The translations under genes were made by a program, and so were the position numbers. From the IMG/VR virus record IMGVR_UViG_3300022602_000026: a DNA stretch of 64,000 nt; one strand, 5' to 3'. The stretch comes from a virus (Duplodnaviria; Caudoviricetes). Positions 5,032-64,000 of this stretch are shown here, one piece after another; position 1 is the first letter of the stretch; each line of letters starts with the position of its first letter. The notes below the pieces were generated by a model. That model was given only the letters and a program-made list of their open reading frames with translations. It was not told where the DNA came from and made no database searches.

Positions 5032-5032
5032 T

Positions 5033-7008: not shown

Positions 7009-9672
7009 ATGAGTTACGTAGATGCTCTATTTGATCGAGCAAAAGATAGAATTCACGTTGTTGAACGTGTAGACGGCGAAAGAAAGTATAAAGAATACGC
7101 TGCCGAGTATGTTTTTTATTACGACGACCCCAAGGGCAAACACCGCACTATATTTGATACTCCGGTTTCAAGATTCCATACTAGAAACAGTAAAGAGTAT
7201 CACAAAGAACTAAAAGTAAATTCAGGCAAACGTTTGTGGGAAAGTGATATCAATCCCATATTTCGTTGTCTTGAATCAAACTATCTCGGGGCTACCTCGC
7301 CCCGATTACATACTGCATTTTTTGACATTGAGGTAGATTTTGATCCCGAAAAAGGTTATGCACCCACAAGCGATCCTTTTAATAAAATAACAGCCTTTTC
7401 CATTTACTTGGATTGGTTAGATAGACTTGTAACTTTGGTGGTTCCACCAAAGTCAATAAGTTGGGATACTGCTGAAGAAATCTGTAGCCGATTTGATAAC
7501 TGTTTTCTTTTTGAACGTGAAGAAGAAATGATCGATACATTTCTTGAACTAATACAAGACGCAGATATCTTAAGTGGATGGAACAGTGAGGGATTTGATA
7601 TTCCTTATACTGTGGGCCGCATTGTACGTGCCTTGAGCCGAGATGACCTAAGACGTTTGTGTTTGTGGAATCAAATGCCTAAAGAGCGTACATTTGAACG
7701 TTTTGGTGCAGAAAATATTACATTTGACTTGATTGGTCGTGTGCACATGGACTATATGCAACTGTACCGCAAGTACACATACGAAGAACGACACAGTTAT
7801 AGCTTGGATGCTATTGCCGAATACGAACTAGGCGAAAGTAAAACGCCTTATGAAGGAACTCTAGATCAGTTGTACAACAAAGACTTTCCCAAGTTTATCG
7901 AGTACAACCGACAGGATACAATGCTGATTGCAAAATTTGACAAGAAACTACGCTTTCTTGATCTTGCAAACGAATTGGCACATGATAACACAGTATTACT
8001 GGCCACTACAATGGGTGCAGTGGCAGTAACCGAGCAGGCGATTATTAACGATGCTCATCAACGTGGTATGGTAGTTCCTAACAGAAAGGGTCGTGATGAC
8101 AAAGAACAAACGCAGGCCGCAGGTGCCTATGTTGCTTATCCCAAAAGAGGTATGCACCGAGACATTGGTGCGATCGACATCAACAGTCTCTATCCCTCGG
8201 CTATTCGTGCCCTTAACATGGGACCGGAAACTATCGTCGGGCAACTCCGGCCAATAATGACCGATCTCTACATCTCGAAAAAGATGGAAGAAAACGGCGG
8301 AAACTTTGCCGAAGCATGGGAAGGTTTGTTTGGCAGTTTAGAATATACTGCTGTAATGGCAGGCGAAGTGGGTACCGAGATCACAATAGATTGGGAAGAT
8401 GGTAGAGAAAGTGTACACAGTGCCAAACAGGTATGGGACATTGTTTTTAACAGTAACCAACCTTGGACCCTGAGTGCAAATGGTACTATATTCAAATACG
8501 ACCGTAAGGGCATTATTCCTGCATTGTTGGAACGTTGGTACGCCGAGCGTAAGGAAATGCAAAAGAAACTCAAGGAAGCAGAAACAGATGAAGACAAAGC
8601 CTATTGGGACAAACGACAGTTGGTCAAAAAGATTAATCTTAATAGTTTGTATGGTGCTTTACTCAATCCTGGCTGTAGGTTTTTCGATAAACGTATTGGT
8701 CAATCTACCACACTTACCGGACGAGGAATTGCCCACCACATGGATTCGCACGTTAACGAAGCCATTACCGGGAAATACGACCACGTAGGTGATGCTGTCA
8801 TATATGGCGATACTGACTCGGTTTACTTCTCGGCCTGGCCCATGGTTCGAGAAGATGTTGAAGCCGGACGCATGGAATGGAACAAAGACATCGCTATACA
8901 GTTATATGATACCATTGCTGACAGTGTAAATGAATCGTTTCCGGCATTTATGGAACGTGCATTTCATTGTCCGCGAGAGATGGGTGCTATCATCAAGGGC
9001 GGACGTGAGCTTGTGGCATCAAAAGGTTTGTTTATTAAAAAGAAACGCTATGCAGTGCTCATCATAGACAAAGAAGGCAAACGTCTAGACACACACGGAA
9101 GCCCAGGCAAGGTAAAGGCCATGGGTTTGGACTTGAAGCGTTCAGATACTCCCAAAGTAGTACAAAACTTTTTAAGCGAGATCTTGATGGATGTGCTGAC
9201 CGGAGCCGAACGTGAAGCTATTATCGAAAAGGTAAAAGAATTTAAGATTGCATTTAAAGAGCGACCAGCCTGGGAAAAAGGCACACCTAAACGTGTAAAC
9301 AACTTGACCAAGTACACTGCCGAAGAACAACGATTGGGCCGAGCCAACATGCCCGGACACGTCAGAGCAGCAATGAACTGGAACAATCTAAAACGTATGC
9401 ATGGCGATAACTATTCTAGTGCTATTGTGGATGGTATGAAAACTATTGTATGCAAATTAAAGGATAATCCCCTAGGCTATACCAGTGTTGGTTACCCCAC
9501 TGATGTGCTACACATCCCACAATGGTTCAAAGACTTGCCGTTTGACAATAGTGCTATGGAAGGTGCTATTGTAGATCAAAAGGTAGAAAACTTACTGGGT
9601 GTTCTTGAATGGAAGATAAAAGAAAACACGGACATCGGTAGCACATTTGATAGTTTATTCAGCCAGGGCTAA
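7009..9672 (+). CDS. polB: Family B DNA polymerase (T4 gp43-like)
   Basis: Exonuclease motifs FFDIE, GWNSEGFDIPY and YNRQD; polymerase motifs DINSLYPS, KINLNSLYG and YGDTDS. Confidence 0.97.
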   Translation: MSYVDALFDRAKDRIHVVERVDGERKYKEYAAEYVFYYDDPKGKHRTIFDTPVSRFHTRNSKEYHKELKVNSGKRLWESDINPIFRCLESNYLGATSPRLHTAFFDIEVDFDPEKGYAPTSDPFNKITAFSIYLDWLDRLVTLVVPPKSISWDTAEEICSRFDNCFLFEREEEMIDTFLELIQDADILSGWNSEGFDIPYTVGRIVRALSRDDLRRLCLWNQMPKERTFERFGAENITFDLIGRVHMDYMQLYRKYTYEERHSYSLDAIAEYELGESKTPYEGTLDQLYNKDFPKFIEYNRQDTMLIAKFDKKLRFLDLANELAHDNTVLLATTMGAVAVTEQAIINDAHQRGMVVPNRKGRDDKEQTQAAGAYVAYPKRGMHRDIGAIDINSLYPSAIRALNMGPETIVGQLRPIMTDLYISKKMEENGGNFAEAWEGLFGSLEYTAVMAGEVGTEITIDWEDGRESVHSAKQVWDIVFNSNQPWTLSANGTIFKYDRKGIIPALLERWYAERKEMQKKLKEAETDEDKAYWDKRQLVKKINLNSLYGALLNPGCRFFDKRIGQSTTLTGRGIAHHMDSHVNEAITGKYDHVGDAVIYGDTDSVYFSAWPMVREDVEAGRMEWNKDIAIQLYDTIADSVNESFPAFMERAFHCPREMGAIIKGGRELVASKGLFIKKKRYAVLIIDKEGKRLDTHGSPGKVKAMGLDLKRSDTPKVVQNFLSEILMDVLTGAEREAIIEKVKEFKIAFKERPAWEKGTPKRVNNLTKYTAEEQRLGRANMPGHVRAAMNWNNLKRMHGDNYSSAIVDGMKTIVCKLKDNPLGYTSVGYPTDVLHIPQWFKDLPFDNSAMEGAIVDQKVENLLGVLEWKIKENTDIGSTFDSLFSQG

Positions 9673-14775: not shown

Positions 14776-15281
14776 ACAGACAAGGGCACGAAACTGCTAG
14801 TTTCTTTTTTGGCAAGGAAGTAGAACATACTCCGGCACTGGGACTGGATACATTATTTGTAGTTGGAGTTCAAAGCACCGACGCAATTGCAAATGCATTG
14901 TCTGGAACTAGTCGACAAATACAACATATTTTCTTTGGTGCGAATCACAGTTTTGATCCGCAAACTCCCGAAGAATGGGACGCCTGGGAAAATATGATCA
15001 CATTCTTTTTGGCTCGAGACTATTGGTGCAGTTTGGATATTCCCATCGGCGCAGTTGAACCGTTCAACGATGGCGGATTAAACGATTACAACAATTTTAT
15101 TCCGCAGATAAGAATCCCAATTCCTTATATTAAATTATGGAATTATAATACCATGCTTAAAATCGATGACAAGGATTTTGCAGCAACCAATCCTGGTGTG
15201 TGGACACATAGTTTACATAACCTAAAAGACCGCAACGTATTCACAGATTGGTCCGAATACAAAAATGATCAAGTATTATGA
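14772..15281 (+). CDS. Hypothetical protein
   Basis: 169-aa ORF coupled to both neighbours. Confidence 0.7.
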   Translation: MNRQGHETASFFFGKEVEHTPALGLDTLFVVGVQSTDAIANALSGTSRQIQHIFFGANHSFDPQTPEEWDAWENMITFFLARDYWCSLDIPIGAVEPFNDGGLNDYNNFIPQIRIPIPYIKLWNYNTMLKIDDKDFAATNPGVWTHSLHNLKDRNVFTDWSEYKNDQVL

Positions 15282-15862
15282 TATTACCAACAGAACGAAT
15301 TATAGTCAGCTTAATTAGAAATTTAATTATTGGACGACAACTGCCCACTAATCAACACGGCGAAGCAGGACGTGCTGCCGAAGACTTGTTAGAAAGCATT
15401 GGAGTTCCTATTAATCGAGGGCCAGGTTGCGACATACAAGAATTTGATTGGGAAGTCAAAACTCGTAACGACAGTGCTACCAGTGCACAAACTATTGCCA
15501 CTATACATCCTAGAGATGTTGCTGCTTACCCGTATAAGCAATCACCTATTTACACAAAGTTTAGAAAACAACTTAGAATCACAACATCCACACAGAATAC
15601 CATTGATAATACTATCATTGCAGTTGATTTAATTGATTTTGATCAACCGCATGTGCAGGATCTAATAGAAGCAGCATACGAACATGGCCGACGACAGATC
15701 ATTGCCAATCCCGATATTGGCTACACACAGTACTTGGGCTATTATGGATACTTTGAACAAACAAAACAAAGTTCCAAGAACTATGATTTTAGACTCAGCG
15801 ACCAAGACATGGATGCATTGATTGCATCTGCAACTTCAACATTTGGAACTTTATTTTCATGA
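15278..15862 (+). CDS. Putative PD-(D/E)XK restriction-endonuclease-like protein (MvaI/BcnI/MutH-like)
   Basis: GEAGRAAEDLL...N.G.GCD....WEVKT...S.QT pattern. Confidence 0.55.
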   Translation: MILPTERIIVSLIRNLIIGRQLPTNQHGEAGRAAEDLLESIGVPINRGPGCDIQEFDWEVKTRNDSATSAQTIATIHPRDVAAYPYKQSPIYTKFRKQLRITTSTQNTIDNTIIAVDLIDFDQPHVQDLIEAAYEHGRRQIIANPDIGYTQYLGYYGYFEQTKQSSKNYDFRLSDQDMDALIASATSTFGTLFS

Positions 15863-43352: not shown

Positions 43353-43856
43353 ATGATAAATGCAATTTTTGCCGCCGATCAATACGGTGGTATAGGATTC
43401 CAAGGCTCTTTACCTTGGCCAAACATCAGCAATGATTTAAAAAACTTCAAACGGCTCACTGAAGGGCACGTGGTAGTAATGGGTCGTAAAACCTATGACG
43501 ATCCCAAACTGCCCAAGCCACTAGTGGGACGAACAGTGTATGTTGCCAGTAAACGATTGATTGCTGATTCAGTATATCAAATCAGTGGCGACATTGCCAG
43601 CGAAGTACTCAAAATAGAACAAGCACATCCCGATAAAATAATTTGGGTCGTTGGCGGATCTGAAATAATCGAACAATGCCAGGATCTTTACGACAACATT
43701 TACTTGACACATGTCAAGGGTTCGTATAAAATAGATGTTAAAGTGAACCTTAAAGGATTATTGTCCGGGAAGCTAATGCGTTATGCAAGTGCTGCGCCCG
43801 AAGATAATTGTACATTTGTAAGATATGAATCAATCTTTAGACGACCAAAAGCCTAA
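43353..43856 (+). CDS. folA: Dihydrofolate reductase
   Basis: GGIG..GSLPW, DL..FK..T, VVMGRKT, PL.GR, WVVGG. Confidence 0.93.
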   Translation: MINAIFAADQYGGIGFQGSLPWPNISNDLKNFKRLTEGHVVVMGRKTYDDPKLPKPLVGRTVYVASKRLIADSVYQISGDIASEVLKIEQAHPDKIIWVVGGSEIIEQCQDLYDNIYLTHVKGSYKIDVKVNLKGLLSGKLMRYASAAPEDNCTFVRYESIFRRPKA

Positions 43857-44559
43857 AATTTTTATTGGCGGGGATAGTTTTGGATGCGGCGAGTGGGACG
43901 AAAGTAGCACTCGTGTTGTTCATCTTGGATTAGAACAATACTTTAAGGATCGTGGATATCAAGTTATCAATTCATCAAAAGGTGGCAGTTCTAATGCAGC
44001 ATCTATTGCACGACTCATTGACAGTTTAGATAAAAGTTTTGTCAAAAATGACATTGTGTTTTGGATACAGTCCGACTGTTTGCGAGAACTAAGGCCGTTT
44101 ACAAATATCGCATCGTTGATAATCAAGGCCAATGGCTTAGCCGAACTTGTACAACAAATCACAGAAAAAGACTATGCAACTTTAAACTCGGCAGCAGTCA
44201 AATTTGACACCAAGATTCATTTAATTGGCGGGATACAAGATATCATGGTATCCAGTCTAACAAACTTTACCAATCTAAATGCTATAGTGCCCAGCTGGAT
44301 TTATATGCTAGTGGGGCATTTTGAAGAATATCAAGATTTATTCCCGCACCATTTACACACCGAAGAAGCGTCAAAATACATCACACTAAAAGTAATACGA
44401 GATCTCAAACTGTTTTATCGTGTGTTGGATGTGTTGTATAAAATGGAACGAAGTTGGATCTTGTATCGTGAAGATGCGTTCCGTCCCGACAAAATACATC
44501 CCAATCGAGACAGTCATCGAATATTGTTTGACCATCTAGTAAAAGAGTTGTTGTTATGA
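43825..44559 (+). CDS. SGNH/GDSL-like protein
   Basis: IGGDSFG, GGSSN, DKIHP. Confidence 0.6.
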   Translation: MNQSLDDQKPKIFIGGDSFGCGEWDESSTRVVHLGLEQYFKDRGYQVINSSKGGSSNAASIARLIDSLDKSFVKNDIVFWIQSDCLRELRPFTNIASLIIKANGLAELVQQITEKDYATLNSAAVKFDTKIHLIGGIQDIMVSSLTNFTNLNAIVPSWIYMLVGHFEEYQDLFPHHLHTEEASKYITLKVIRDLKLFYRVLDVLYKMERSWILYREDAFRPDKIHPNRDSHRILFDHLVKELLL

Positions 44560-45248
44560 TACATGCTTTTGGTGATAGTTTTGTTGTTGGTGACCAAGAT
44601 GACTATATCGGAGATGCCAATACCAATCCCAACGATCCGCCCACACACGGCATGAACGAACACGAGCGTACTGAGTATCTCAAATACAATGTTAGTTTTG
44701 CAGCCTTGATTGCCAAACAATTAAACACTGGTTTAAAAAATTATGCCGTGCGCGGCACTGGCAATTATCCACAGTTAGATATGCTTTGGAACCAATTGGT
44801 CGATAAAAACATAACTGCCGACGATGTTGTATTATTTGGAGTCACTACCGGAATTAGAGACCGTGCTGGTTCGTTGGATTATAAAGATTTAAGCAAGTCA
44901 TTGAGTGTGTTGCATTTGGCAAATTGGGACGATATTGGTGATATACCAAAAGTAGATCAATTTTATGTACTAAGTACACTAACACAACTAAGTGTTGCGT
45001 TTGGTGTTAGAATCATAAAGTTTAATTTGTTTGATCAAGCTCTAGACTTTGAATTCAATGACTATTTACGTGGCACTTTAGTCGATATCTTAAACGACAC
45101 TTACGGACAAAATATTGCTCATCCCTATCACGATCAATTAAAAATACCTGCCGGATACGAAGCACTATATACTTATAAAAAACATCCCAGTGTACAGGGA
45201 CATCAAAAAATAGCCCGTTGGTTTTTAAAGAACACGTTCAATGAATAA
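44556..45248 (+). CDS. SGNH/GDSL-like protein
   Basis: AFGDSFV, RGTGN, KKHPSVQGH. Confidence 0.6.
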   Translation: MIHAFGDSFVVGDQDDYIGDANTNPNDPPTHGMNEHERTEYLKYNVSFAALIAKQLNTGLKNYAVRGTGNYPQLDMLWNQLVDKNITADDVVLFGVTTGIRDRAGSLDYKDLSKSLSVLHLANWDDIGDIPKVDQFYVLSTLTQLSVAFGVRIIKFNLFDQALDFEFNDYLRGTLVDILNDTYGQNIAHPYHDQLKIPAGYEALYTYKKHPSVQGHQKIARWFLKNTFNE

Positions 45249-54520: not shown

Positions 54521-55784
54521 GTATAATATTAATAGTCATTACGAAAATATTTTTCATTACTTAAACACTATTGTAACAGATCCAAGGTGTCTTTACCTAA
54601 TGCCTTATGGGTCAACTTCGCCAAAAAATCTAGAATTCTTAATGCAAGACATTGGCTTTTGGCCCGGAGATCGCGGACAACTATTTTTGTTTTACGATCA
54701 AGAACCCATATTGGGAACATTCAATTTTGAGCTATTGGATCATGTCTGTAATAGTTTTTTACACGGAGATAAATTTGTTTTAGTTACCACAGAACGAGAT
54801 AGCCAAACTTTGGATTTAATCAAAGAAAAATACAAATGTCCTGTTGTCTATTACTTTCATCATGTGTTTGCTGCCCACGATTGGTTTAGGGGAGTTAAAT
54901 TTGATTCTAGACTTGTTGATCCAAGCAAAAGAAAATTGACTAAAAAGTACATTACCTTTAATCGAATAACAAGTAATTTACGAGTGTATCGTAGTTTATT
55001 TATTAGCGAATTAATTAAACGCGATATACTTGAACAGGGCTATGTAAGTTATAGCGACGTATGCCCCGAGAACGGATCTAGCTATGAGCAAAATCTATTA
55101 GATGCTGTAGATGAAAAATTAATTACACAAACAGTTGCAACCGAAGCCATCAACAATATCAATCAAGTGTCTTTGCCATTGCGTATCGATTTCAAAGACG
55201 AAAAGCTAATTCCTAACAGTAGTTTTATATTAAGTGCAGTTACCGAAACACAAGAAAGTTTTATTTATGTGGTCACTGAAACTTGCTATTGGGAACGCAA
55301 ATGTCATCTAACTGAAAAAATATTTAAACCCATTGTAAGTCGAATGCCATTTATACTTGTTGGGCCGGCACATAATTTAGCGTATCTACGCAGTTATGGA
55401 TTTCGAACATTTGATAAATGGATCGACGAAAGTTACGATACGATTGAAGATCCTATTGCACGTATGAGCATGATCGGAGCCGTACTGTCGGATTTATGTA
55501 CATTAAGTTTGCACGATTTAGAATGTATGCTTGCCGAAATGCAAGAAGTCTTAGAATATAACTACAATTTATTTTATAGTCAGGAGTTTATTGATCGTTG
55601 CTGGGGCGAACTAACTGATAATCTCAAGTCTGTGACCGATACTTTGCTAGTTCCTCCAAGACTAAAGGAATCCATCGAGATGTATCTTGAGTCAAAATCC
55701 TTATTTGATATTTTTGGGGAGGCTGCCATAGATGGTTGGTGTCCTCATACCTCCCAGTCGTTAGAGTATCCACCCACACCGTAA
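54519..55784 (+). CDS. Glycosyltransferase-like protein (GT10-like TEK motif), paralog 3
   Basis: YVVTET...LTEKIFKPI...PFIL...LRSYGFRTF...DESYD; start codon uncertain. Confidence 0.55.
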   Translation: MYNINSHYENIFHYLNTIVTDPRCLYLMPYGSTSPKNLEFLMQDIGFWPGDRGQLFLFYDQEPILGTFNFELLDHVCNSFLHGDKFVLVTTERDSQTLDLIKEKYKCPVVYYFHHVFAAHDWFRGVKFDSRLVDPSKRKLTKKYITFNRITSNLRVYRSLFISELIKRDILEQGYVSYSDVCPENGSSYEQNLLDAVDEKLITQTVATEAINNINQVSLPLRIDFKDEKLIPNSSFILSAVTETQESFIYVVTETCYWERKCHLTEKIFKPIVSRMPFILVGPAHNLAYLRSYGFRTFDKWIDESYDTIEDPIARMSMIGAVLSDLCTLSLHDLECMLAEMQEVLEYNYNLFYSQEFIDRCWGELTDNLKSVTDTLLVPPRLKESIEMYLESKSLFDIFGEAAIDGWCPHTSQSLEYPPTP

Positions 55785-56055
55785 AGTCTGCGTCATAGAT
55801 ATCGCGCATTTCTTGTAACGGGCAAACAAAGTCGGCAATTACAAAATCAGATTCTATTCTACCGGACATTTCTCGCATTCGTTTAGATTGTCTAATTCTT
55901 CCCTCGTGACTGAAATCCCAATCATCGTATTCTTCACGAACTCGATCGGCATTTAACCAAACGGTTTTAAATCCACGCGAGTCAAGCTCTTGCTTGAGTG
56001 CATCGGCTAAAGTGGTTTTGCCTGCGCCCGGTAGGCCCATTATTAGTATTCTCAT
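55624..56055 (-). CDS. cysC: Adenylylsulfate (APS) kinase-like protein
   Basis: GLPGAGKTT, LNADRVR, DFS.EGR.RQ..R, DFVCP. Confidence 0.8.
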   Translation of the reverse strand: MRILIMGLPGAGKTTLADALKQELDSRGFKTVWLNADRVREEYDDWDFSHEGRIRQSKRMREMSGRIESDFVIADFVCPLQEMRDIYDADFTVWVDTLTTGRYEDTNHLWQPPQKYQIRILTQDTSRWIPLVLEELAKYRSQT

Positions 56056-57545
56056 GAGCAGACTTTAACACCATATAGTCGTTCAAACCTATCTGCATCG
56101 GCTCTATCGTTTACCATAGGTTCGCCACGTATGTTTAAACTTGTATTAAGCAACATGGGGCATCCGGTCATTACAAACCATTTCTCTAACAGTTCTCTTA
56201 TTCCCGATCCGTCTCGTGCAACTGTTTGTACTCGACTTGTTCTATCGTGATGTACAATAGCAGGAAATAAATCGGGATTCCTGCAAGTAGCCACTGATTG
56301 CATGTAAGGGCTAGTAGCGAAGCCCCGAGGCATATCAAAATACTCCTGGGCATATTCTTCAAGAATGACCGGCGCGAAAGGCCTAAATCGTTGTCTGCGT
56401 TTGATTTCATTTACTTTGTCCTTGATTTCACTTCCTCGCGGATCTGCGAGTAAACTTCTATTTCCCAGGGCTCTAGGTCCGAATTCTGCGCGGCCACTAG
56501 CCACACCAACAATTTTATCACCGAGTAAGTGATCAAGTACGTCGTTAACAGGATAGGCACCAGGTATATCATGGCCAAGAAAAGCATCGCGCCAATTAAC
56601 ACGTTTTTTATACGCCAGCGCCGCAGCACCAAGACTGCTCCCGGCATCGCCAGGATTTGGCATAATCCATACATTATCAAAATAAGCTCCTATGTGTCTA
56701 TTGGCACTACAGTTAAGAGCAACACCGCCCATATAAACTAAGTTGTTGCTCCACCCCATCTTTTTAGCACGATGCATAACATTGAGTATTAATATCTCTG
56801 CTGTATTCTGTGCACTATGCGCCATTTCCTCTACACCGGCCTCTTGAAAAAAGCCTTCGGTAAAGCCCACGTGCAAGTTTTGTCGTAGTCTAACTTCATA
56901 TTCATTTTCAATTACTGCGGTTTGTACCAAGTCATCAAACACGTTAGTACCATACGCTGCCATGCCCATTGTGATGTATTCTTCTTCGTTGGGACGTAAG
57001 CCACAACGTTGTGTCATAGCACTATAAAACAATCCAATACTGTGTGGATACCGTTGTCCCCACAGTCGTTTGTAAGTTGCTTCGCCTTGGCTATTGTATT
57101 CGGCACCCCAGATACTGATAGTATCCCATTCGCCTATAGCATCAATGACAACTACTGTGGCACGATCAAATGGACTTGTTTGGAATCCAGCGGCCGCATG
57201 ACTTAAATGATGATTGTAACTCTTGACCGGTACACCAGAAATATCAAAAATCTTTAATTGATCTTGTACGATTCGACGTGTGCTTAATTTTGTCCACTCA
57301 ATGCCCTGACCCGAATACCATTGGCGTGCTTGTTTGTATAACGGACGTTCGTAATAGGCAATGGCGTCAAGACTGAAACAATTCTCAGCGTTGACCAAAT
57401 CCCATACCATTTCCGAATGTAGGTCGGGATCGTTCTTGATTTTACTGTATCTTTCACTGTGTGCGGCAAATAATATATCCCCTTTGGGCGATAACAATGT
57501 TACTGCGGCATCATGAAAGCCAGCCGAAACTCCTAATATGTTCAT
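56052..57545 (-). CDS. O-carbamoyltransferase (NodU/CmcH/TobZ family)
   Basis: HDAA, HHLSHAA, DAIGE, GGVALNC, GDAG, EFGPRALGNRS, FRPFAP, LNTSLN..GEP. Confidence 0.93.
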   Translation of the reverse strand: MNILGVSAGFHDAAVTLLSPKGDILFAAHSERYSKIKNDPDLHSEMVWDLVNAENCFSLDAIAYYERPLYKQARQWYSGQGIEWTKLSTRRIVQDQLKIFDISGVPVKSYNHHLSHAAAGFQTSPFDRATVVVIDAIGEWDTISIWGAEYNSQGEATYKRLWGQRYPHSIGLFYSAMTQRCGLRPNEEEYITMGMAAYGTNVFDDLVQTAVIENEYEVRLRQNLHVGFTEGFFQEAGVEEMAHSAQNTAEILILNVMHRAKKMGWSNNLVYMGGVALNCSANRHIGAYFDNVWIMPNPGDAGSSLGAAALAYKKRVNWRDAFLGHDIPGAYPVNDVLDHLLGDKIVGVASGRAEFGPRALGNRSLLADPRGSEIKDKVNEIKRRQRFRPFAPVILEEYAQEYFDMPRGFATSPYMQSVATCRNPDLFPAIVHHDRTSRVQTVARDGSGIRELLEKWFVMTGCPMLLNTSLNIRGEPMVNDRADADRFERLYGVKVCS

Positions 57546-58173
57546 AAAGTTTGTTTGCTACTTGTTTGTGTCCGTCGTCAAGAAAATGTCCATTTGGTCC
57601 ACGTTTACAACCCTGTGTCCATTCAGCCATCCCTGCATTGGGCCATCCCAGATAATGTTGCCGATCTATCAATTGATCTAAATGGTAGTATTGTAAGTAA
57701 TGACTGTTATGATAGTACTCGTTGCCCACAGTTCTCAGCATCACATAACGTATATTACAGGATTTTAAGAAATTTTGCAACAAAATAACGTCCATTAAAT
57801 GTTGTTGATACATCCAAGTACTGTTATGATGTTCGTTTATGTATTCCAGTAGTTCCATTCTCCAAACTTGCCCACTGCTCTGGAACATATTTCCCGAATA
57901 TCCGGGCCAAATATCATAGGGGCCGGCTGCATCAGCAAACTCCATTCGCCCGGGACTGCTCCAACCAATTATAACAAAGTCAATGGGAATTTTGTTTGCT
58001 ATCTGCTCCATTACTGTACGCACCATGCGTCGATTTCCCGACCCAGGTCGAGCAAGATTGTTTACTTTGCATCCTATTGTTCTTGAAAGAAGATAGGGAT
58101 ATGCGTTCATTATATCCGAAAGTTCTTCTCCGTAGGTGAAACTGTCGCCTACGGCCAATATATTATTAATCAT
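57511..58173 (-). CDS. SGNH/GDSL-like protein
   Basis: AVGDSFT, PGSGN, NGHF...GH. Confidence 0.6.
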   Translation of the reverse strand: MINNILAVGDSFTYGEELSDIMNAYPYLLSRTIGCKVNNLARPGSGNRRMVRTVMEQIANKIPIDFVIIGWSSPGRMEFADAAGPYDIWPGYSGNMFQSSGQVWRMELLEYINEHHNSTWMYQQHLMDVILLQNFLKSCNIRYVMLRTVGNEYYHNSHYLQYYHLDQLIDRQHYLGWPNAGMAEWTQGCKRGPNGHFLDDGHKQVANKLYEHIRSFGWLS

Positions 58174-58271
58174 TTGTATATAAAAGGATCTCGTTTGCGT
58201 AGCTCTCGGAGCTTTTTGCGATAACGTATTTCAAGTACAAGTCGATTGTACATTTTCTTTAACCATTTCAT
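58170..58271 (-). CDS. 33-aa basic microprotein A (not in the ORF track)
   Basis: MKWLKKMYNRLVLEIRYRKKLRELRKRDPFIYK; stop overlaps the next ATG. Confidence 0.75.
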   Translation of the reverse strand: MKWLKKMYNRLVLEIRYRKKLRELRKRDPFIYK

Positions 58272-58272
58272 G

Positions 58273-58953
58273 TTATATTCTTTCTAGTATGTATATCACT
58301 AACCCGCCACTTCGATAATTAAACAACGCAGGTATTAGTATATTATTTAAGATACTTGGACCGGCCGAGGTTATTTTCCATCCCGGAGTCATTGCTTGTA
58401 CTTGCTTTTGTGTAAAACTCAATTCAAATGGATTTTGTTCTTGATCTTGGTATAGTATATCACTGTGATAATTTATTTGTAGGAATCTTTTTGCTATCTT
58501 GCCCACGGGATGATATAATCCCAATATCATTTTTCCATTATCGGCTACACTGTCCAATAACTTTGGTAATACTTGTTGATATTCGGGAATATGATGTAGA
58601 ACTCCTTGACACAAAACAATATCAAATTTGTTGGGTATTGTGTATTTGACTACATCTTCTTTAAGAAAAGTAACATTTGTTATACGGTTTGACCTTGCAA
58701 ATTCTTTTGCATAGTCAATTGAGGTTGCAAAGTCTAGACCAACAATATTTGTATTTTTGTTTCGTAGTGCCAATAAGTTAGATATTAATCCAGTACCACA
58801 ACCAACATCTAAAACAGTACTTGCTCGGGATACCTGCGTATTTATAATGTGTAAATATCTATTCTCAATTGGATCTCCGTAGCTGGATAACTGTTCTAGA
58901 GTGTAATAGCCCGGGAACGGAGTTTTATCATAGAATTCTTTTACCGATGTCAT
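58273..58953 (-). CDS. Class I SAM-dependent methyltransferase
   Basis: VLDVGCGTG, GLD, FDIVLCQGVLHH. Confidence 0.9.
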   Translation of the reverse strand: MTSVKEFYDKTPFPGYYTLEQLSSYGDPIENRYLHIINTQVSRASTVLDVGCGTGLISNLLALRNKNTNIVGLDFATSIDYAKEFARSNRITNVTFLKEDVVKYTIPNKFDIVLCQGVLHHIPEYQQVLPKLLDSVADNGKMILGLYHPVGKIAKRFLQINYHSDILYQDQEQNPFELSFTQKQVQAMTPGWKITSAGPSILNNILIPALFNYRSGGLVIYILERI

Positions 58954-59051
58954 TTGTAAAGATACGGATCTCGTTTACGAATTTGTTTTAATACTCGGCG
59001 ATAATGTATTGCTAACTTTATTTCTTTATAAAGATTTCTTAACCAGTTCAT
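58950..59051 (-). CDS. 33-aa basic microprotein B (not in the ORF track)
   Basis: MNWLRNLYKEIKLAIHYRRVLKQIRKRDPYLYK; stop overlaps the next ATG. Confidence 0.75.
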   Translation of the reverse strand: MNWLRNLYKEIKLAIHYRRVLKQIRKRDPYLYK

Positions 59052-59832
59052 TGAATTTGTCTTTCATTAATTCGGCAGCTGCTTGATGTGCTTGTTCCAA
59101 TGGATGTGTTGTGCCTATAGGATATTTATTTTCCACTGCCCATTGATAAAAGCCTCGCGGTGTTGTTGTGTTCCAAGGTTCATGCGCTGGCTCAAACAAA
59201 AACCATTTATCAAAATTGATTTGTTTGTTAAGGTTTACTACGTTTAAGTCCTGTTGCGATTGATTGTAAAACATATTGGTATCTGCACAAGTAAACATAT
59301 AGGGTATTTGATTACTGTCAAGGTATTGTTGTAAAAATAACATTTCCTTAACCGAAGAATATGTTTCGTATAACTCGTTATCGCCAATATTTTTATAAAA
59401 GATTTTTGCAAATTTGCCCAATTCGGTTTGATTCAACTTGGCAAAATGATCAGTATGGTGTTTTGCTATTACTTGGTCCGACTTCACAATGTGCAATATC
59501 TCGTCCATGGTATCGTGTGAGTCCCAGGGAGTTAAACTATACCAGTTACTGGTTCTAACCTGTTGATTAAAATAAAATTCGTATCTACAACTAAACGTCC
59601 ATGTAACATGCACAAATAATTTTTGTTCCAGGTATTGGTTGCAGGCGTTGATCACTTGTCTTGCAATTGCGCTATTAGAATTTCCAGTTTGTGCTGTACA
59701 GAGATACTCTAAGTTGTAATTGTTGGCCAGTAGAGCTGGGAATGTAGATTTGCTGGGCACATGAGTTCCCGGCAATTGATCTGCCAATTCAGTTCCATAA
59801 ACAAAACTATCACCCCCGGCTACTAAAATCAT
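59026..59832 (-). CDS. SGNH/GDSL-like protein
   Basis: MILVAGGDSFV, TGNSN, TTHPLEQAH. Confidence 0.6.
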   Translation of the reverse strand: MILVAGGDSFVYGTELADQLPGTHVPSKSTFPALLANNYNLEYLCTAQTGNSNSAIARQVINACNQYLEQKLFVHVTWTFSCRYEFYFNQQVRTSNWYSLTPWDSHDTMDEILHIVKSDQVIAKHHTDHFAKLNQTELGKFAKIFYKNIGDNELYETYSSVKEMLFLQQYLDSNQIPYMFTCADTNMFYNQSQQDLNVVNLNKQINFDKWFLFEPAHEPWNTTTPRGFYQWAVENKYPIGTTHPLEQAHQAAAELMKDKFNELVKKSL

Positions 59833-60880
59833 ATCCTGGTCGTAATCTTTCAATTTGTTGTTGATAATAGTCTGCATCGGTCCAAGTATAATCGTATACT
59901 GCACGTACATCACCGGCTTCTATGCTGAGTATATCTAAATATTTTGACAGTACGGGCCAAACTTTTCGAAAGTCTGTGGTGCCAAAGCTCTTGAGCAACT
60001 CAACTTGACCAACAGGGTGGTATCCATAATTGTATTCGGTATTTTGTGCATCAAATCCGTTACGATGCAACCACTCCCTAAATCCAGTCATTTCTCGTGT
60101 GTGCCACGGATGCGGTCCATTAAAGATAACATCTTGTGCCCACTCAATATCAAACTCTCCACTATAATAGCGTAAATGAGTAATAGCATCACAAGTAGCA
60201 CTATCGATATCCACTCCATGCTCATCACGATAGACTTCATAAAGCGTTTTACCAATCTGCGTCCAATGGAGGTAGACTTCCCCGAATCGTCTATCGTATC
60301 TAGTTTCATCAAAAGAGGTTTTATGTTCATGGGGGAAATCTATCCTGGGTGCATTTAAGAAAGTTGTTATTTGACTGGGTCGAATCCATTCGGGTTGTGT
60401 TGCTTGTTTGCGTTGACTCAACATCAAACTCTCTGCTTCGTGACATAAATTGTTTAGTTGTCTAATGGCAAACTTTGTTTCATAGTCTGCACGTCGGTAA
60501 TAATCACTTAACTCCCACACAGTACCTTGTAAATGTTCAAAGTGATTATGTAGCCTATTCATAACATCTTGATTGGGATCTAAACCCTCGCGCATAGTGC
60601 TGGGCAAATATACTTCAGGTATCCAATATTCCTGGCCAAAGAATCGATTGATTTGATTTGTTGCCCAATTAAGTTCTCGACATATAAAATCTAAGTTTCT
60701 AGCACTATCAGGAAAACCCAAAAAGCAAAAATTCTTTTCAAGATAATTGTTGTTACGCAATAAATCTTGCAATGCTAGGTACCATAACTCGCCTATAGGC
60801 GAATCGTTTACTGCAATTGTGTAATCAATTTGATCCCGTTTGTTTAACGGGTTGCGTAGTACTATTTTAACTTGTCTCAA
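59810..60880 (-). CDS. Hypothetical protein
   Basis: 356-aa ORF in operon; NRLHNHFE, LNNLCHE; no family recognised. Confidence 0.7.
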   Translation of the reverse strand: MRQVKIVLRNPLNKRDQIDYTIAVNDSPIGELWYLALQDLLRNNNYLEKNFCFLGFPDSARNLDFICRELNWATNQINRFFGQEYWIPEVYLPSTMREGLDPNQDVMNRLHNHFEHLQGTVWELSDYYRRADYETKFAIRQLNNLCHEAESLMLSQRKQATQPEWIRPSQITTFLNAPRIDFPHEHKTSFDETRYDRRFGEVYLHWTQIGKTLYEVYRDEHGVDIDSATCDAITHLRYYSGEFDIEWAQDVIFNGPHPWHTREMTGFREWLHRNGFDAQNTEYNYGYHPVGQVELLKSFGTTDFRKVWPVLSKYLDILSIEAGDVRAVYDYTWTDADYYQQQIERLRPGYDFSSRG

Positions 60881-62183
60881 TGCTGTCCCACCATGCTAAT
60901 ACTGCTGGACGTTCAGACAGTATGTCTCTCATAGTATACACGTCTTTGCGAATAGACTCAAGAGTTAATATACGTTGTTTGCCCTTTATTAATCCAATTT
61001 GGTAAGTGTCAGGCCACTGTTCCGCAAATGTGGGTCTAGTTTTCAGCTGGACTAAGATATCCTTTAACGGGGTGCTACCACTTGGCAATTGCCGTATCTC
61101 GTCATCTATCCAGGGATCTAATAGTTCCCGGGGTAGGGCTAAAGGTGACATAACTATGTCCGGGCTGAAACTAAAAATTACTTTGGCAAGGATTTCCGCA
61201 CCAAGTTCTTTTCCAAGAGCTTGCACTCGCCCACATTCGAACATGCCTGGCAACGTGAGTGTAAAATCGATTCGCATCTGTCGAGCATTAGTTGCAATCT
61301 CAGTTCCTCTACGGAAGTTCTCAAGCCACCGATCGTACTCAAGGCCTGTTCTAATATATTCGCCAATCGCTCCTGTTCCGTCGAGCGATGCACAGATTTG
61401 CCAATCCCGTAAATGGGGCAAAATATCGGTATAAAGCCCAATGCCACGATAACTAATACGGGACAAATTAGTATTATATCTAGCATAAACATTTTTGCCA
61501 TCTCCTAATTCAACAATCCGTTTCATGTACTTCCAATGTTGCTCGTACATCAACGGCTCCCCGCCCACCCAGTAGACTTCTTCAACTCTATGTTCTTCTA
61601 CTGCGTCGCTAAACTCTTGTTCAATTTGAGTCGCTTGGAATTGTTCAATTTGTTGTTTGATTTCGGGTCGCATCCAATTGTTCTTGGGATTGGTGTAGTC
61701 GATCATGTGGTGTGTGCGTTGTTCGGTCTCCCATGCACTTGACAACATATCGCCACACATGCGGCACTTGAAATTGCAGAGATTACTGAACCGATAGTCC
61801 CAGCTCACCGGCCGCATTGTTGTGCGGCCTGTGTCATCTGTGGAAGCGATTGCTTCATTGTACTTATCGCCAAACAGTTGGTTAAAATAACTGCGGTAAA
61901 CAGAGGTATTCAACAGTTTATCATTACATACTTCGCACTCGGGTAATGTTTCGCCGGACATCATGCGTTTTCGTACGGAGCGCATGTGGTCACCGTTCCA
62001 ATGTTCGTCCAGGGTGATAGGTATATACCGACCAGAACCGGCGCTGGTGTCGATATACTGTTGAAAGTTTTGTGCAGGTTCACGACTGGCACAACACATT
62101 CTGCGTTCAGTTTGCGGACTCAAATAAGTATGACACCAAGCGGCTAAACACAAATTAGGAGGCTTTTCTTTCGGAAATTCCAT
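60867..62183 (-). CDS. Radical SAM protein with N-terminal SPASM/twitch-like domain
   Basis: C.AAW...MCCAS...C..C; CNFKCRMC; GGEP; YNTN; SLDG; start placed at 62183. Confidence 0.88.
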   Translation of the reverse strand: MEFPKEKPPNLCLAAWCHTYLSPQTERRMCCASREPAQNFQQYIDTSAGSGRYIPITLDEHWNGDHMRSVRKRMMSGETLPECEVCNDKLLNTSVYRSYFNQLFGDKYNEAIASTDDTGRTTMRPVSWDYRFSNLCNFKCRMCGDMLSSAWETEQRTHHMIDYTNPKNNWMRPEIKQQIEQFQATQIEQEFSDAVEEHRVEEVYWVGGEPLMYEQHWKYMKRIVELGDGKNVYARYNTNLSRISYRGIGLYTDILPHLRDWQICASLDGTGAIGEYIRTGLEYDRWLENFRRGTEIATNARQMRIDFTLTLPGMFECGRVQALGKELGAEILAKVIFSFSPDIVMSPLALPRELLDPWIDDEIRQLPSGSTPLKDILVQLKTRPTFAEQWPDTYQIGLIKGKQRILTLESIRKDVYTMRDILSERPAVLAWWDSIETS

Positions 62184-62192
62184 TTTTAATTG

Positions 62193-62199
62193 ATAAATA
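62193..62199 (+). promoter_or_regulatory. T4-late-like promoter ATAAATA upstream of the HNH gene
   Basis: ATAAATA 65 bp before the ATG, followed by a GATG/CATC hairpin and an AAAGGA RBS. Confidence 0.5.
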
Positions 62200-62263
62200 A
62201 AAGTGCAGGTCGCGATGCTACCAACATCCACCCGCTCTAACAGTTGTAAAGGAACTATCAGCA

Positions 62264-62842
62264 ATGATATTTATAGATAACAAATATACTCGTTGGTATT
62301 ATAACATAATCACTAACTCACAAGCAAGAACTCTGCCTCTAGATGTTTACACCGAGAAACATCATGTTATTCCTAGAAGTCTAGGCGGAAATAACTCAAA
62401 ATCTAATCTAGTCAGTCTAACTGCAAAAGAACATTTTATATGTCATCTCTTGTTGCCAAAAATGCTAACAGGTGATAACAAGTTAAAAATGGTATATGCA
62501 TTATACTGCATAACCCATGTTCGCAATAAGGGACAAACGACCCGACATGTACCTACATCGAGACTTTTTAATAAGATAAAAGAAGACTGGAAATCGAGTA
62601 TTAAAGGACGAGTTGCACACAATAAAGGCAAGCCAATGTCGGCCGAGCAGAAAGAAAAACTGCGATTAGCTAACATTGGAAAAACCTATACTAGGTCTGC
62701 TGAATATTTACAAAAACAATCATTGGCACAAACTGGTAAATCAAGAGGCAAAGGACGAGCATCTAATAGAAAAGGTATTGCAATGTCAGAGGAACAAAAA
62801 GCAAAGATCCGCAATACCTTACTTAAAAGATATCGTGGTTAA
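62264..62842 (+). mobile_element. Free-standing HNH homing endonuclease with NUMOD3-like DNA-binding repeats
   Basis: EKHHVIPRSLGG.N...NLV.LTAKEHFICH; repeats KGKPMSAEQKEKL and KGIAMSEEQKAKI; antisense to both neighbours. Confidence 0.88.
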
Positions 62843-64000
62843 TAACCCATTGCTCCGGCTATTTCTGGATGTGTGTCTCGAAAGTTTTGTTTGCGATATG
62901 CATCAGTTTGTTGCATTTGTCTTAAAAACTCTCGGCCATCACTGCCCTGACCCAATTCAATAAATTTAATAACACGATCTATTTCTTCTTGATGTTTATT
63001 TGTGGTCCAAAATTTAGTTTTTAGTTTGTTTAATACCAACTCTTGTGCTCGTGGAGTCATATACTGTATGCTCATGTGATTGGGACTGTGTAACATATTA
63101 AAGTAAATGCTACCAAAATCTTTAGTATCAGCCCAAGCCAATAACTCATCCAAGTAATAAACATTTTGTATATTGATAGTAAAGCATAACTGAGTAGTAA
63201 TGTTAGGTGCCCATTCTGTTTTGGCAAAATGTGTTCGGTCAATATTACTGTTAGCTTCTGCCCAATTGGCACCGTAACGTTCGTATTCAAAACGTTCGCC
63301 CACATTATCAATACTGAATGCAATGTCCACTCGACCAAACTTTGCCCACATAGGTACATGCGGTAACGGTGTTTGTGTGGCATTGGTGTTGTAGTGTATG
63401 TCAATGTTTCGACTATATCCTTGATCTACTGCATATTGTAGTAGATCAAAGTGCTCTTGTATTAACCAGGGCTCACCGCCAGTAAACTCAAAATATCGAA
63501 TGTTGGGCAACAATGCTTTTAAGTTTTCCCAGAACCCAGGGCTTTCTTCGGGCCACTTGCCGGCCTTGAGCCAAGTATATGCGATGTGCTTTTTCTTGTC
63601 TGCACCTTGAGGCAAGTAATCCATTTCTTCTGCGGCCCACTTGCTACTACTCCATGATCCGCATATACGACATTTTAAATTGCAAATGTTACCAAGTTTT
63701 AAATCTACAAACCAAAGTTGATTGGGAGTATCATTCGCCCAATCCACTTCGGGATATAATTCTTTAAGTCTAACCTGCGTGTGCATACGTTTACTGGTAC
63801 GGCCTGCATCTTCCTCGTCCCAACATCTCTTACAAGTTGCGGGTTTGGCGCCTACACGAAATTGTCGACGCAGATCCTGCATGTACTGACTTTTGTATAC
63901 AACTTGTAAATTTGTTTTAGTTAGGTCGTATTTGTTACCGGCTTCGTCTACGATCTCGTCATGTGCAAGACAACAGGGCCTAGTGGTACCCATTGGACTA
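62839..64000 (-). CDS. Radical SAM protein with N-terminal SPASM/twitch-like domain; 5'-truncated by the window edge
   Basis: RPCC...C..C; CNLKCRIC; TGGEP; YNTN; FSID; frame open to the window end. Confidence 0.88.
   Translation of the reverse strand, partial: SPMGTTRPCCLAHDEIVDEAGNKYDLTKTNLQVVYKSQYMQDLRRQFRVGAKPATCKRCWDEEDAGRTSKRMHTQVRLKELYPEVDWANDTPNQLWFVDLKLGNICNLKCRICGSWSSSKWAAEEMDYLPQGADKKKHIAYTWLKAGKWPEESPGFWENLKALLPNIRYFEFTGGEPWLIQEHFDLLQYAVDQGYSRNIDIHYNTNATQTPLPHVPMWAKFGRVDIAFSIDNVGERFEYERYGANWAEANSNIDRTHFAKTEWAPNITTQLCFTINIQNVYYLDELLAWADTKDFGSIYFNMLHSPNHMSIQYMTPRAQELVLNKLKTKFWTTNKHQEEIDRVIKFIELGQGSDGREFLRQMQQTDAYRKQNFRDTHPEIAGAMGY

Follow-up and report, generated by a model that had tools for sequence, protein, structure and literature searches.

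Among described systems, the small DUF5989 proteins (Pfam PF19451) offer a close comparison for the phage peptides analyzed here. They are approximately 49 aa long, carry an N-terminal basic amphipathic stretch and a PFIY motif near the C-terminus, and adjoin a carbamoyltransferase (CT) of the NodU/SxtI type, as the phage peptides do. In 29 of 30 Bacteroidota loci we observed the DUF5989 gene as the immediate downstream neighbor of the CT, with the gene for an SxtJ-like membrane protein after it. The DUF5989 proteins presumably correspond to the SxtK type, known from the sxtI-J-K-L region of the saxitoxin genes. Within the saxitoxin cluster, short ORFs without an assigned function adjoin sxtI, and the GDSL lipase SxtL is encoded in the same cluster (PMC2885083), which mirrors the phage order of GDSL-like gene, peptide, GDSL-like gene and CT.

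The likeness has its limits. The endings differ (APFIYTLF in DUF5989, DPFIYK in the phage peptide), and the gene order is opposite, with DUF5989 downstream and the phage peptide upstream of the CT. DUF5989 proteins have a transmembrane helix with a run of approximately 19 hydrophobic residues, whereas the phage peptide has a charged helix and the two peptides of our locus, pep1 and pep2, lack such a run. Neither DUF5989 nor any other Pfam model matched pep1 (P0001), pep2 (P0002) or 104 family members at E <= 10, and hhalign against the DUF5989 alignment returned a probability of 25% over five columns only (DPFIY/APFIY). Judged from these alignments, the phage peptide and DUF5989 appear to share a resemblance for which homology is unsupported. 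A small DUF2061 membrane protein encoded between peptide and CT in approximately 18 phage loci was considered as an SxtJ counterpart and rejected at the sequence level, as BLASTP gave no alignment.

The only characterized phage enzyme of this CT family is the 5-hydroxymethylcytosine carbamoyltransferase (Yang et al. 2021, eLife, PMC8670742). Its nucleic-acid substrate fits the many peptide-CT pairs that we observed in replication modules. No accessory peptide was described for it and the enzyme was active alone in vitro (PMC8670742), so a peptide is dispensable for catalysis in that CT clade. The gene content of the operon studied here (radical SAM, GDSL, kinase and methyltransferase) is more suggestive of small-molecule or sugar tailoring.

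Two further kinds of short element are relevant. Regulatory leader and arrest peptides (TnaC, SecM, SpeFL and the fungal arginine attenuator peptide) are likewise encoded by a short ORF directly upstream of the gene they regulate, and they too are conserved toward the C-terminus and variable toward the N-terminus. Unlike them, the phage peptide has no conserved stop codon or release-factor dependence and shows a helical amphipathic pattern throughout. Its module is found in addition at the end of a 360-aa enzyme, and its bacterial analogue is located downstream of the enzyme gene. The PeSLs of T4-type phages are reportedly non-coding promoter-stem-loop elements present in many copies per genome. 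Like the twin peptides, they are short conserved elements that flank variable genes and could mediate cassette shuffling, whereas the phage peptide is protein-coding, selected at the amino-acid level and present once per genome.

The operon and its twin peptide genes

The window, a 64,000-nucleotide stretch of a Caudoviricetes virus (IMG/VR record IMGVR_UViG_3300022602_000026), contains a minus-strand operon with the following genes, given in operon order.

62839-63993, minus strand: radical SAM enzyme, N_Twi_rSAM (NF033640, 313 bits), extending to the window edge
60867-62264, minus strand: radical SAM enzyme, N_Twi_rSAM (NF033640, 282 bits)
59810-60880, minus strand: 356-aa protein with no Pfam or NCBIfam match
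59026-59913, minus strand: DUF6071/GDSL(SGNH)-like gene #1 (weak match to Pfam DUF6071, E = 2.7e-5)
58950-59051, minus strand: pep2 (P0002), 33-aa divergent paralogue of pep1, ending in DPYLYK
58273-58953, minus strand: class I SAM-dependent methyltransferase, 226 aa (Pfam Methyltransf_31, E = 3.4e-20)
58170-58271, minus strand: pep1 (P0001), 33-aa micropeptide whose translation has the canonical DPFIYK ending
57511-58173, minus strand: DUF6071/GDSL(SGNH)-like gene #2 (Pfam DUF6071, E = 2.6e-5)
56052-57545, minus strand: NodU/CmcH/SxtI-type CT, 497 aa (Pfam Carbam_trans_N, E = 1e-38; Carbam_trans_C, E = 4e-48)
55624-56055, minus strand: APS-kinase-like P-loop kinase, 143 aa, the final gene (Pfam APS_kinase, E = 1.2e-12; NCBIfam apsK domain)

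The preliminary description had placed the peptides in a radical SAM/carbamoyltransferase operon. This context was recovered, with one amendment: the enzymes it called radical SAM/SPASM both score well above the NF033640 cut-off of 170 bits and are twitch-first N_Twi_rSAM proteins, not classical maturases with a C-terminal SPASM domain. The 356-aa gene belongs to synteny cluster 9, which is kept upstream of GDSL-like gene #1 in architecture-B loci. The GDSF motif of gene #1 aligns with gene #2, and the real start of gene #1 is probably downstream of the listed GTG. A megablast search with the whole operon gave no match.

Both 33-aa ORFs exist and translate as first reported, on the minus strand, which had been left unsaid. 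The two are paralogues, with 16 of 33 residues identical and 25 of 33 positive (BLASTP, E = 3e-12). At the DNA level the two are approximately 62% identical within the ORF and unrelated outside it, and thus do not form a DNA repeat; the longest identical run is 11 bases. The reported coupling to the next gene was also confirmed, as the TGA stop of pep1 overlaps the ATG of GDSL-like gene #2 and that of pep2 the ATG of the methyltransferase (ATGA in each case), an arrangement that is general in this compact genome. Pep2 also shares 26 nt with the 3' end of the DUF6071-like gene that precedes it. The resulting same-strand order is pep2, methyltransferase, pep1, GDSL-like gene and CT. With 13 Lys and Arg residues in pep1 (pI 10.8, net charge +10) and 10 in pep2, both peptides are basic; neither contains Cys, Ser or Thr, while Trp, Tyr, Lys and Arg are present. 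AF2 predicted pep1 as one helix (residues 2-27) followed by a hook (29-32), with a pLDDT of 91.

A phage micropeptide family and its neighbors

Pep1 and pep2 are protein-coding members of a very large family of phage micropeptides, newly defined here as ORFs of approximately 30-60 aa that end in (K/R)(K/R)DPFIYK and have a basic helix, ...K(R/K)LxEL(R/K), ahead of this ending. The conserved module comprises the last ~17 residues, a basic amphipathic helix (Y/F)(R/K)K(R/K)LxEL(R/K)KR and the terminal hook DPFIYK, while the N-terminal part varies in length and sequence. Pep1 matches this definition in full; pep2 is a variant match, its hook being DPYLYK and its helix less typical. The DPYLYK variant is rare and recurrent, observed at 5 viral loci, whereas DPFIYK was seen at more than 240. 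When close relatives of pep2 were sought as a possible donor cassette, only other subfamilies with the same variant turned up.

Conservation in other phages had been named beforehand as a point on which the proposal turned, and the family was found at more than 240 viral loci. Among 1.84 billion proteins it formed 550 clusters at 50% identity (E <= 1e-3), whose members are nearly all 29-89 aa long and have the motif right at the C-terminal end. Two degenerate DNA scans each gave at least 120 matches, nearly all of them small ORFs with the conserved module. Among the carriers are marine phages of the T4-like kind, jumbo phages of 330-365 kb and one jumbo phage of Ralstonia that is in culture, and a single copy was present in each of five complete phage genomes of 329-365 kb. 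Among 185,579 prokaryote species genomes, the exact string KRDPFIYK turned up at no more than 11 loci, every one of them on a MAG contig, so the family appears to be phage-borne. A DNA pattern match revealed a 360-aa class-II-aldolase-like enzyme with the module fused on as its C-terminal end; a comparison of a 40-aa member with longer proteins found no fused form, and such fusions are either rare or were missed by it.

No named relative was found in Pfam, PHROGs, NCBIfam, the ESM Atlas or PDB sequences, and no paper on a DPFIYK micropeptide family was found in the searchable literature. Metagenome gene callers label the members 'hypothetical protein', and the homologue in Ralstonia phage RsoM2USA (MG752970) is not annotated in its GenBank record. 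A blastn search with the DNA of one member gave chance matches only. When the 33-aa peptide was used as a tblastn query on 50,697 records of isolate phages, no match was returned; that search was insensitive, and an HMM later found members in RsoM2USA and in Marine virus AG-345-D19.

Selection at the protein level, first suggested by the differences between the twins, is now strongly supported by codon usage at fixed residues and by an excess of synonymous change. The Arg at position -7 uses all six codons and the Leu at -10 also six, Pro and Ile use three to four, and the residues themselves are fixed. Mean pairwise differences at codon positions 1, 2 and 3 were 0.24, 0.14 and 0.46, and 59% of codon differences were synonymous in frame versus 9% in other frames. 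For 72 of 111 distinct peptides, the start was preceded at a distance of 4-16 nt by a Shine-Dalgarno (SD)-like 4-mer, compared with a background of 7%. Because synonymous sites vary freely, codon positions show periodicity and SD sites are present, the sequence evidence strongly supports translation of the family members and their selection as proteins.

The constant neighbor of the family is the NodU/SxtI-type CT, not the radical SAM enzymes. Among the matches listed, a CT was present at 202 of 243 peptide loci, and the next gene downstream of the peptide was a CT at 137 loci and a GDSL-like gene at 32; in window-type loci the CT directly follows the GDSL-like gene. Restricting the count to loci with at least 3.5 kb of downstream flank gave a CT at 99 of 115, with the other 16 having none nearby. 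Conversely, the peptide was found upstream on the same strand at 70 of the 80 closest CT loci, while 7 of the 80 had no peptide within 4 kb. Relatives of GDSL-like gene #2 (53-60% identity) all had the peptide directly upstream. At many loci the peptide lies between a primase and a CT-helicase pair in a replication module (architecture A), where no radical SAM gene was observed among the recurring neighbors. The association proposed earlier with these enzyme families thus stands for the CT and fails for the radical SAM enzymes, which are missing nearby at many loci. Adjacent genes can differ even within one peptide subfamily, which precedes GDSL-like, CT, SAM synthetase, nucleotidyltransferase and methyltransferase genes. 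The combination seen for DUF5989, a PFIY (PYLY in pep2) near the C-terminus with a CT in the same operon, was also observed in the window, with the CT on the other side.

Origin of the twins and role of the peptide

In three relatives of the window (L004-L006), the peptide is present once and no methyltransferase separates the DUF6071-like genes. The last 21 residues of pep1 are identical to those of the L006 peptide, and the first 8 residues of pep2 are identical to those of the single peptide of L004. A second, independent twin locus (L316) brackets an unrelated 173-aa gene, again with a divergent upstream copy. Homologues of the methyltransferase with 46% identity occur at three other loci (L001-L003), with no peptide there. 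Because L004-L006 have one peptide without a methyltransferase and L316 has twins around a different gene, insertion of the methyltransferase gene at the peptide gene plausibly accounts for the twins, whose paired state would then be secondary. The ancestral operon would have had the order GDSL, peptide, GDSL and CT, and the peptide gene would have been duplicated during the insertion, probably via recombination within it. Pep2, the upstream copy, may have diverged since then while still constrained.

Our preferred reading, to which we give a tentative probability of about 0.45, is that the peptide acts in trans as an accessory partner of the NodU/SxtI-type CT module, with the twins produced by the methyltransferase insertion. 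The hook and helix would dock the peptide onto the CT or a CT complex, and the strongly cationic, aromatic-rich helix could set the CT module on a polyanionic or membrane surface, a role comparable to that of the transmembrane helix in bacterial DUF5989 proteins. The link to the CT, the varied adjacent genes, the single copy per genome, the module as an enzyme tail, the predicted long helix with its hook and the bacterial parallel, with membrane proteins beside the CT in DUF5989 loci and, as DUF2061, in some phage loci, are in line with a partner. The peptide loci without a CT (16 of 115), the 7 closest CT loci without a peptide, the unsupported homology to DUF5989 and its opposite placement, and the phage CT that was active alone in vitro count against one. 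A complex prediction for the window CT and peptide, run without controls, scored 0.22 against a mark of 0.32 and weighs in neither direction. Among the options offered in the preliminary description, a small adaptor for tailoring enzymes pointed in this favored direction; docking of the peptide to each adjacent enzyme does not fit the subfamily that precedes varied genes or the single copy per genome. A likeness to the sliding-clamp docking motifs of T4-type phages was also considered and rejected, as the phage's own polymerase ends in ...STFDSLFSQG and the 15278-15862 product in ...TFGTLFS, unlike RDPFIYK.

A position strictly 5' of a gene and a separate copy for each inserted gene fit a role in cis equally well. 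The level at which the downstream gene is translated would then be set by ribosomes reading the peptide ORF, perhaps with a pause of the nascent chain at its conserved C-terminal residues, and an inserted gene would need its own copy. The peptide was nearly always directly 5' of a same-strand gene, overlapping it as ATGA in 111 of 125 TGA-type matches and separated by a gap of 0-12 nt at most TAA/TAG-type loci. Most conservation falls within the ~17 codons that precede the stop, where in the ATGA type there is no SD for the next gene, and at both twin loci one copy precedes the inserted gene and the other the original gene. We nevertheless regard such a leader as doubtful. The stop codon varies, with TGA, TAA (55) and TAG (34) all common. 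In the TAA/TAG type, the next gene has an SD-like site of its own beyond the stop in 26 of 42 cases, which makes coupling dispensable, and ATGA overlaps are in any case general in the window genome. The N-terminal half retains an amphipathic helical pattern, for which a nascent chain in the ribosome tunnel would have no use. In bacteria, the PFIY-tailed analogue is encoded on the downstream side of its CT, and a phage genome with many tailoring genes has only one copy.

The invariance of the hook and the need for it to end the protein could instead mark a substrate or scaffold, in which the CT, with other tailoring enzymes in some phages, modifies the invariant C-terminal Tyr-Lys. HypF carbamoylates the C-terminus of HypE, and cofactor-type RiPPs such as mycofactocin are built on the C-terminal residues of a peptide. 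The CT, to which the peptides are most tightly linked, belongs to the HypF/TobZ fold family, and window-type operons add radical SAMs, a methyltransferase, GDSL hydrolases and a kinase. Many loci, however, have only peptide and CT in a replication module, the tail is found also on the 360-aa enzyme, and the sole characterized phage CT acts on 5hmC in DNA, RNA and nucleotides. Neither RRE domain, leader protease nor exporter was seen among those neighboring genes that the scans covered. A substrate role is improbable on this balance, and its fuller form, in which the CT carbamoylates the Tyr-Lys and the additional enzymes of larger operons elaborate it further, is slightly less probable still. 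The RiPP precursor first proposed is unlikely as stated: the constant neighbor is the CT, the peptides lack Cys, Ser and Thr, the N_Twi_rSAM enzymes are not known peptide maturases, and co-occurrence with a maturase does not extend across the family. Radical cross-links on Trp, Tyr, Lys or Arg are chemically open to these peptides. Least probable of all is that the peptide gene serves chiefly as a portable homology block for the exchange of enzyme cassettes, its coding being incidental. The same small gene does stand ahead of many different enzyme genes, and twins bracket an inserted gene at two independent loci. Yet synonymous sites vary freely and DNA identity is low while amino acids are held, no run of identical bases in the window twins exceeds 11, complete genomes have one copy, and most members have an SD site. 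A recombination junction, also among the early suggestions, accounts for the duplication and not for the family; it plausibly holds for the window twins, given L004-L006 and L316, while selection on amino acids and the single copy per genome speak against it as a description of the family.

The micropeptide is conserved across hundreds of phage lineages and has been missed by the protein family libraries searched and by the searchable literature. It is almost inseparable from a CT whose only characterized phage relative makes 5-carbamoyloxymethylcytosine, a new DNA base. Should the peptide prove to be a partner, tether or acceptor of the CT, these enzymes have so far been studied in vitro with one component missing. 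Any such role would also give a first experimental handle on DUF5989 and the sxtJ/sxtK-type ORFs beside bacterial O-carbamoyltransferases, including the enzyme of saxitoxin biosynthesis. Were the peptide an acceptor, infection by any of thousands of aquatic phages would yield a modified peptide or a small molecule derived from one. The twin loci show a route by which new tailoring genes join such operons.

Twin peptides and their operon

The preliminary description had placed two 33-aa peptides around a methyltransferase gene, each coupled to the gene that follows it. Both small ORFs, here pep1 (P0001) and pep2 (P0002), were confirmed on the minus strand, and the TGA of each overlaps the following ATG. 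The genes are listed in operon order.

Genes of the operon and the ORF on the opposite strand
62839-63993, minus strand, N_Twi (twitch-first) radical SAM enzyme, running to the window edge
62264-62842, plus strand, weakly HNH-like gene of 192 aa (21.1 bits, just below the cut-off of 21.4), between the two radical SAM genes
60867-62264, minus strand, second N_Twi radical SAM enzyme
59810-60880, minus strand, uncharacterised 356-aa protein, between radical SAM and GDSL-like #1
59026-59913, minus strand, DUF6071/GDSL-like #1, directly 5' of pep2
58950-59051, minus strand, pep2, small ORF of 33 aa
58273-58953, minus strand, class I methyltransferase, between pep2 and pep1
58170-58271, minus strand, pep1, small ORF of 33 aa
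57511-58173, minus strand, DUF6071/GDSL-like #2, directly 3' of pep1
56052-57545, minus strand, NodU/SxtI-type carbamoyltransferase (CT), after GDSL-like #2
55624-56055, minus strand, APS-kinase-like P-loop kinase, after the CT

Pep2 also overlaps the preceding gene, GDSL-like #1, by 26 nt, and the plus-strand ORF at 62264-62842 may be a homing endonuclease insertion. The two peptides are identical at 16 of 33 residues (25/33 positives, E = 3e-12, BLASTP). Their DNA is about 62% identical within the ORFs and unrelated beyond them, with a longest shared run of 11 bases, so the likeness lies at the protein level and not in a DNA repeat.

The window derives from a phage that encodes a T4-type DNA polymerase together with further phage replication genes. 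The polymerase (7009-9672, plus strand) ends in ...STFDSLFSQG and a 194-aa protein (15278-15862, plus strand) in ...TFGTLFS, both resembling T4-type sliding-clamp-binding tails. Two more genes of about 230-245 aa (43825-45248, plus strand) lie in the long plus-strand operon adjoining the cluster, and their C-termini (...HPNRDSH... and ...HPSVQGH...) suggest further SGNH/GDSL-like paralogues.

Relatives of GDSL-like #2 (53-60% identity) in three viral contigs (L004-L006) each have one peptide directly upstream. This single peptide lies between two GDSL-like genes with no methyltransferase, and overlaps the first of them by 26 nt, exactly like pep2. The first eight residues of pep2 are those of the L004 peptide and the last 21 of pep1 are those of the L006 peptide; the methyltransferase thus sits within what relatives have as one peptide gene. 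A second, independent twin locus (L316:3272-3992, plus strand) has the same layout with a different bracketed gene: an uncharacterised 365-aa gene, a divergent peptide (...KKPFIYW), an uncharacterised 173-aa gene, a canonical peptide and a CT. Its two copies are roughly three-quarters identical at the DNA level, and in both twin loci the divergent copy is the upstream one. Such a layout could have arisen by integration of a peptide-plus-gene unit through recombination within a resident peptide gene, or alternatively by simple duplication followed by insertion. Pep2 is probably still functional, since its intact 33-codon ORF keeps the helix pattern and RKRDP..YK.

The DPFIYK micropeptide family

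A degenerate DNA pattern (R-D-P-(F/Y)-(I/L)-Y-K-TGA) scanned across IMG/VR gave at least 120 matches, and the same pattern with TAA/TAG stops again gave at least 120. With a single exception, every TGA match listed closes a small ORF whose preceding codons encode the same conserved helix, a feature that the pattern leaves free. A search of 1.84 billion representative proteins with a profile of 104 distinct members matched 550 clusters (50% identity, E <= 1e-3). Almost all of these proteins are 29-89 aa long and match at their very C-terminal end; where a few seem to extend further, the extra residues start with W or Q, as a gene caller's read-through of the stop codon would produce. In P0003, a 75-aa metagenome protein, two tandem family peptides from different subfamilies were called as a single protein, and the Q between them is probably such a stop. 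The exact C-terminal word was found at only 11 loci in 185,579 prokaryote species genomes, all on MAG contigs. The cultured Ralstonia jumbo phage RsoM2USA (MG752970, locus L127) has an unannotated 36-aa member (5032-5142 of the locus, ending ...RKQDPFIYK), which lies in the gap before RsoM2USA_200 (GDSL-like); RsoM2USA_199, a CT annotated "hypothetical protein", comes next.

All named members are annotated "hypothetical protein". Scans with Pfam, PHROGs and NCBIfam models gave no match to the peptides, the ESM Atlas gave nothing beyond its own unnamed clusters, a PDB sequence search found none similar, and the motif, DUF5989 and DUF6071 were all absent from the literature search. The DPFIYK peptides are a new and very abundant family of micropeptides that has neither name nor publication; the family-wide census, CT-side test, fused form, one-copy result and second twin locus are new in this analysis.

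The conserved module comprises the last ~17 residues, (Y/F)(R/K)K(R/K)(L/I)xEL(R/K)KRDPFIYK, and ends the protein. The N-terminal half differs between members in both length and sequence and is usually an aromatic-rich amphipathic stretch, with rare members acidic or Cys-rich. Cys-rich extensions (CSCGH..HCK.KC..CRCEHCNC) precede the tail at L113:3613-3759 (minus strand), L186:5969-6184 (minus strand), L210 and L215, with no CT within the fetched flank. In the AlphaFold2 model built on the family alignment (mean pLDDT 91), residues 2-27 are predicted as one helix that breaks at Asp28 and leads into a short hook at 29-32. Pep1 has a pI of 10.8 and a net charge of +10, and both window peptides lack Cys, Ser and Thr. 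The module also serves as a protein tail: in three contigs (L277:2958-4037, plus strand; L220; L242) it ends a 360-aa class-II-aldolase-like enzyme (GatZ/KbaZ-like, F_bP_aldolase; ...SLKKRDPFIYK). An NT5C-like nucleotidase gene follows these fusions, with no CT nearby.

Selection at the protein level, suggested earlier from the two window copies, was borne out across 111 distinct member DNA sequences among the matches listed. Fixed residues use all available codons (Arg -7 six, Leu -10 six, Pro and Ile three to four). Conservation of the last seven residues follows from the search pattern, and positions -17 to -8, which were free of it, are 90-94% conserved; where the pattern permitted F/Y or I/L/M, F was found in 110/111 and I in 109/111. 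Within the 33-aa subfamily, mean pairwise differences were 0.24, 0.14 and 0.46 at codon positions 1, 2 and 3, and the synonymous share of codon differences was 59% in frame vs 9% across the two alternative frames. Of the 111 members, 72 have an SD-like 4-mer at 4-16 nt 5' of the start (background 7%). These patterns in the DNA identify the ORFs as translated, selected proteins.

Linkage to the carbamoyltransferase

Peptide and CT are tightly linked in both directions. Among the matches listed, 202 of 243 peptide loci contain a CT; where the sequence runs on for 3.5 kb or more downstream, the count is 99 of 115. Conversely, when the 80 closest CT loci from viruses (53-71% identity) were taken as the starting point, 70 had a peptide upstream on the same strand, and three of the ten peptide-less loci were truncated at the CT. 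At three peptide-less loci (L342, L350, L352; about 3000-4000, plus strand) the gene directly 5' of the CT ends ...GGGHHC(V/A)TLDL and looks like an amidinotransferase of a different tailoring island.

The gene at or just past the peptide stop was a CT in 137 of the loci listed and DUF6071/GDSL-like in 32; in window-type loci the CT directly follows the GDSL-like gene. A small DUF2061 membrane protein was next to the peptide in 18 of the loci listed, in most with the CT directly after; it has two helices and 74-81 aa (e.g. L176:1996-2217, minus strand; L178:6765-7007, plus strand). Methyltransferase, SAM synthetase, nucleotidyltransferase, zeta-toxin-like kinase, UDP-glucose dehydrogenase, radical SAM or uncharacterised genes followed in a few loci each. 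Of the two principal recurring layouts, one consists of primase, peptide, CT and DnaB-type helicase; the other, that of the window, has several N_Twi radical SAMs (NF033640) and an uncharacterised 357-aa gene, then GDSL, peptide, GDSL and CT. The peptide is independent of the adjacent gene's identity, a single 33-34 aa "EIRYRKKLKEL" subfamily being found 5' of many different genes. Exactly one copy was found in each of five phage genomes of 329-365 kb that are essentially complete.

The YrdC-like C-terminal domain of CTs makes carbamoyl-adenylate. Short CT homologues of 312-340 aa (L080:7212-8150, minus strand; L013:4174-5181, minus strand; about 18 more loci) have Carbam_trans_N only, without this domain, and the peptide is still upstream.

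Bacterial counterparts and possible roles

PF19451 (DUF5989) was matched in 114 of 301 Bacteroidota genomes. These proteins of 49-55 aa begin with a basic amphipathic segment, contain a transmembrane helix and end in APFIYTLF. They are encoded a few bases past the end of a CT gene in 29 of 30 loci; an SxtJ-family membrane protein comes after them. The phage order of peptide, DUF2061 and CT echoes this trio, although the DUF2061-like protein has no sequence similarity to SxtJ. Homology with DUF5989 finds no support: the phage peptides gave no HMM match to it, and hhalign aligned only DPFIY with APFIY (25% probability). The window CT shares 33% identity with a bacterial CT linked to DUF5989 and 32% with a cyanophage CT that has no peptide, values too close to discriminate. 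That small proteins with a PFIY tail accompany this enzyme family in both phage and bacteria is unlikely to be chance and points to functional resemblance.

We favour, with a probability of roughly 0.45, a trans-acting accessory partner of the CT module. The peptide would dock through its helix and hook, possibly onto the CT, and the cationic aromatic helix could give surface placement on a membrane or polyanion. A cis-acting leader peptide appears unlikely: stop codons vary, many TAA/TAG members have SD sites after the stop, the helical pattern spans the whole peptide, and the bacterial analogue sits downstream of its CT. HypF-type enzymes carbamoylate a protein C-terminus, which gives precedent for the peptide as substrate or scaffold; supporting genes are lacking, and we consider this role more doubtful still. 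The preliminary option of a recombination junction fails as a sole account, being contradicted by amino-acid selection and by the single copy per genome, and is the least probable reading.

In concept, the family can be seen as a phage-borne version, lacking the TM helix, of the PFIY-tailed small proteins, themselves uncharacterised, that are found beside bacterial CTs.
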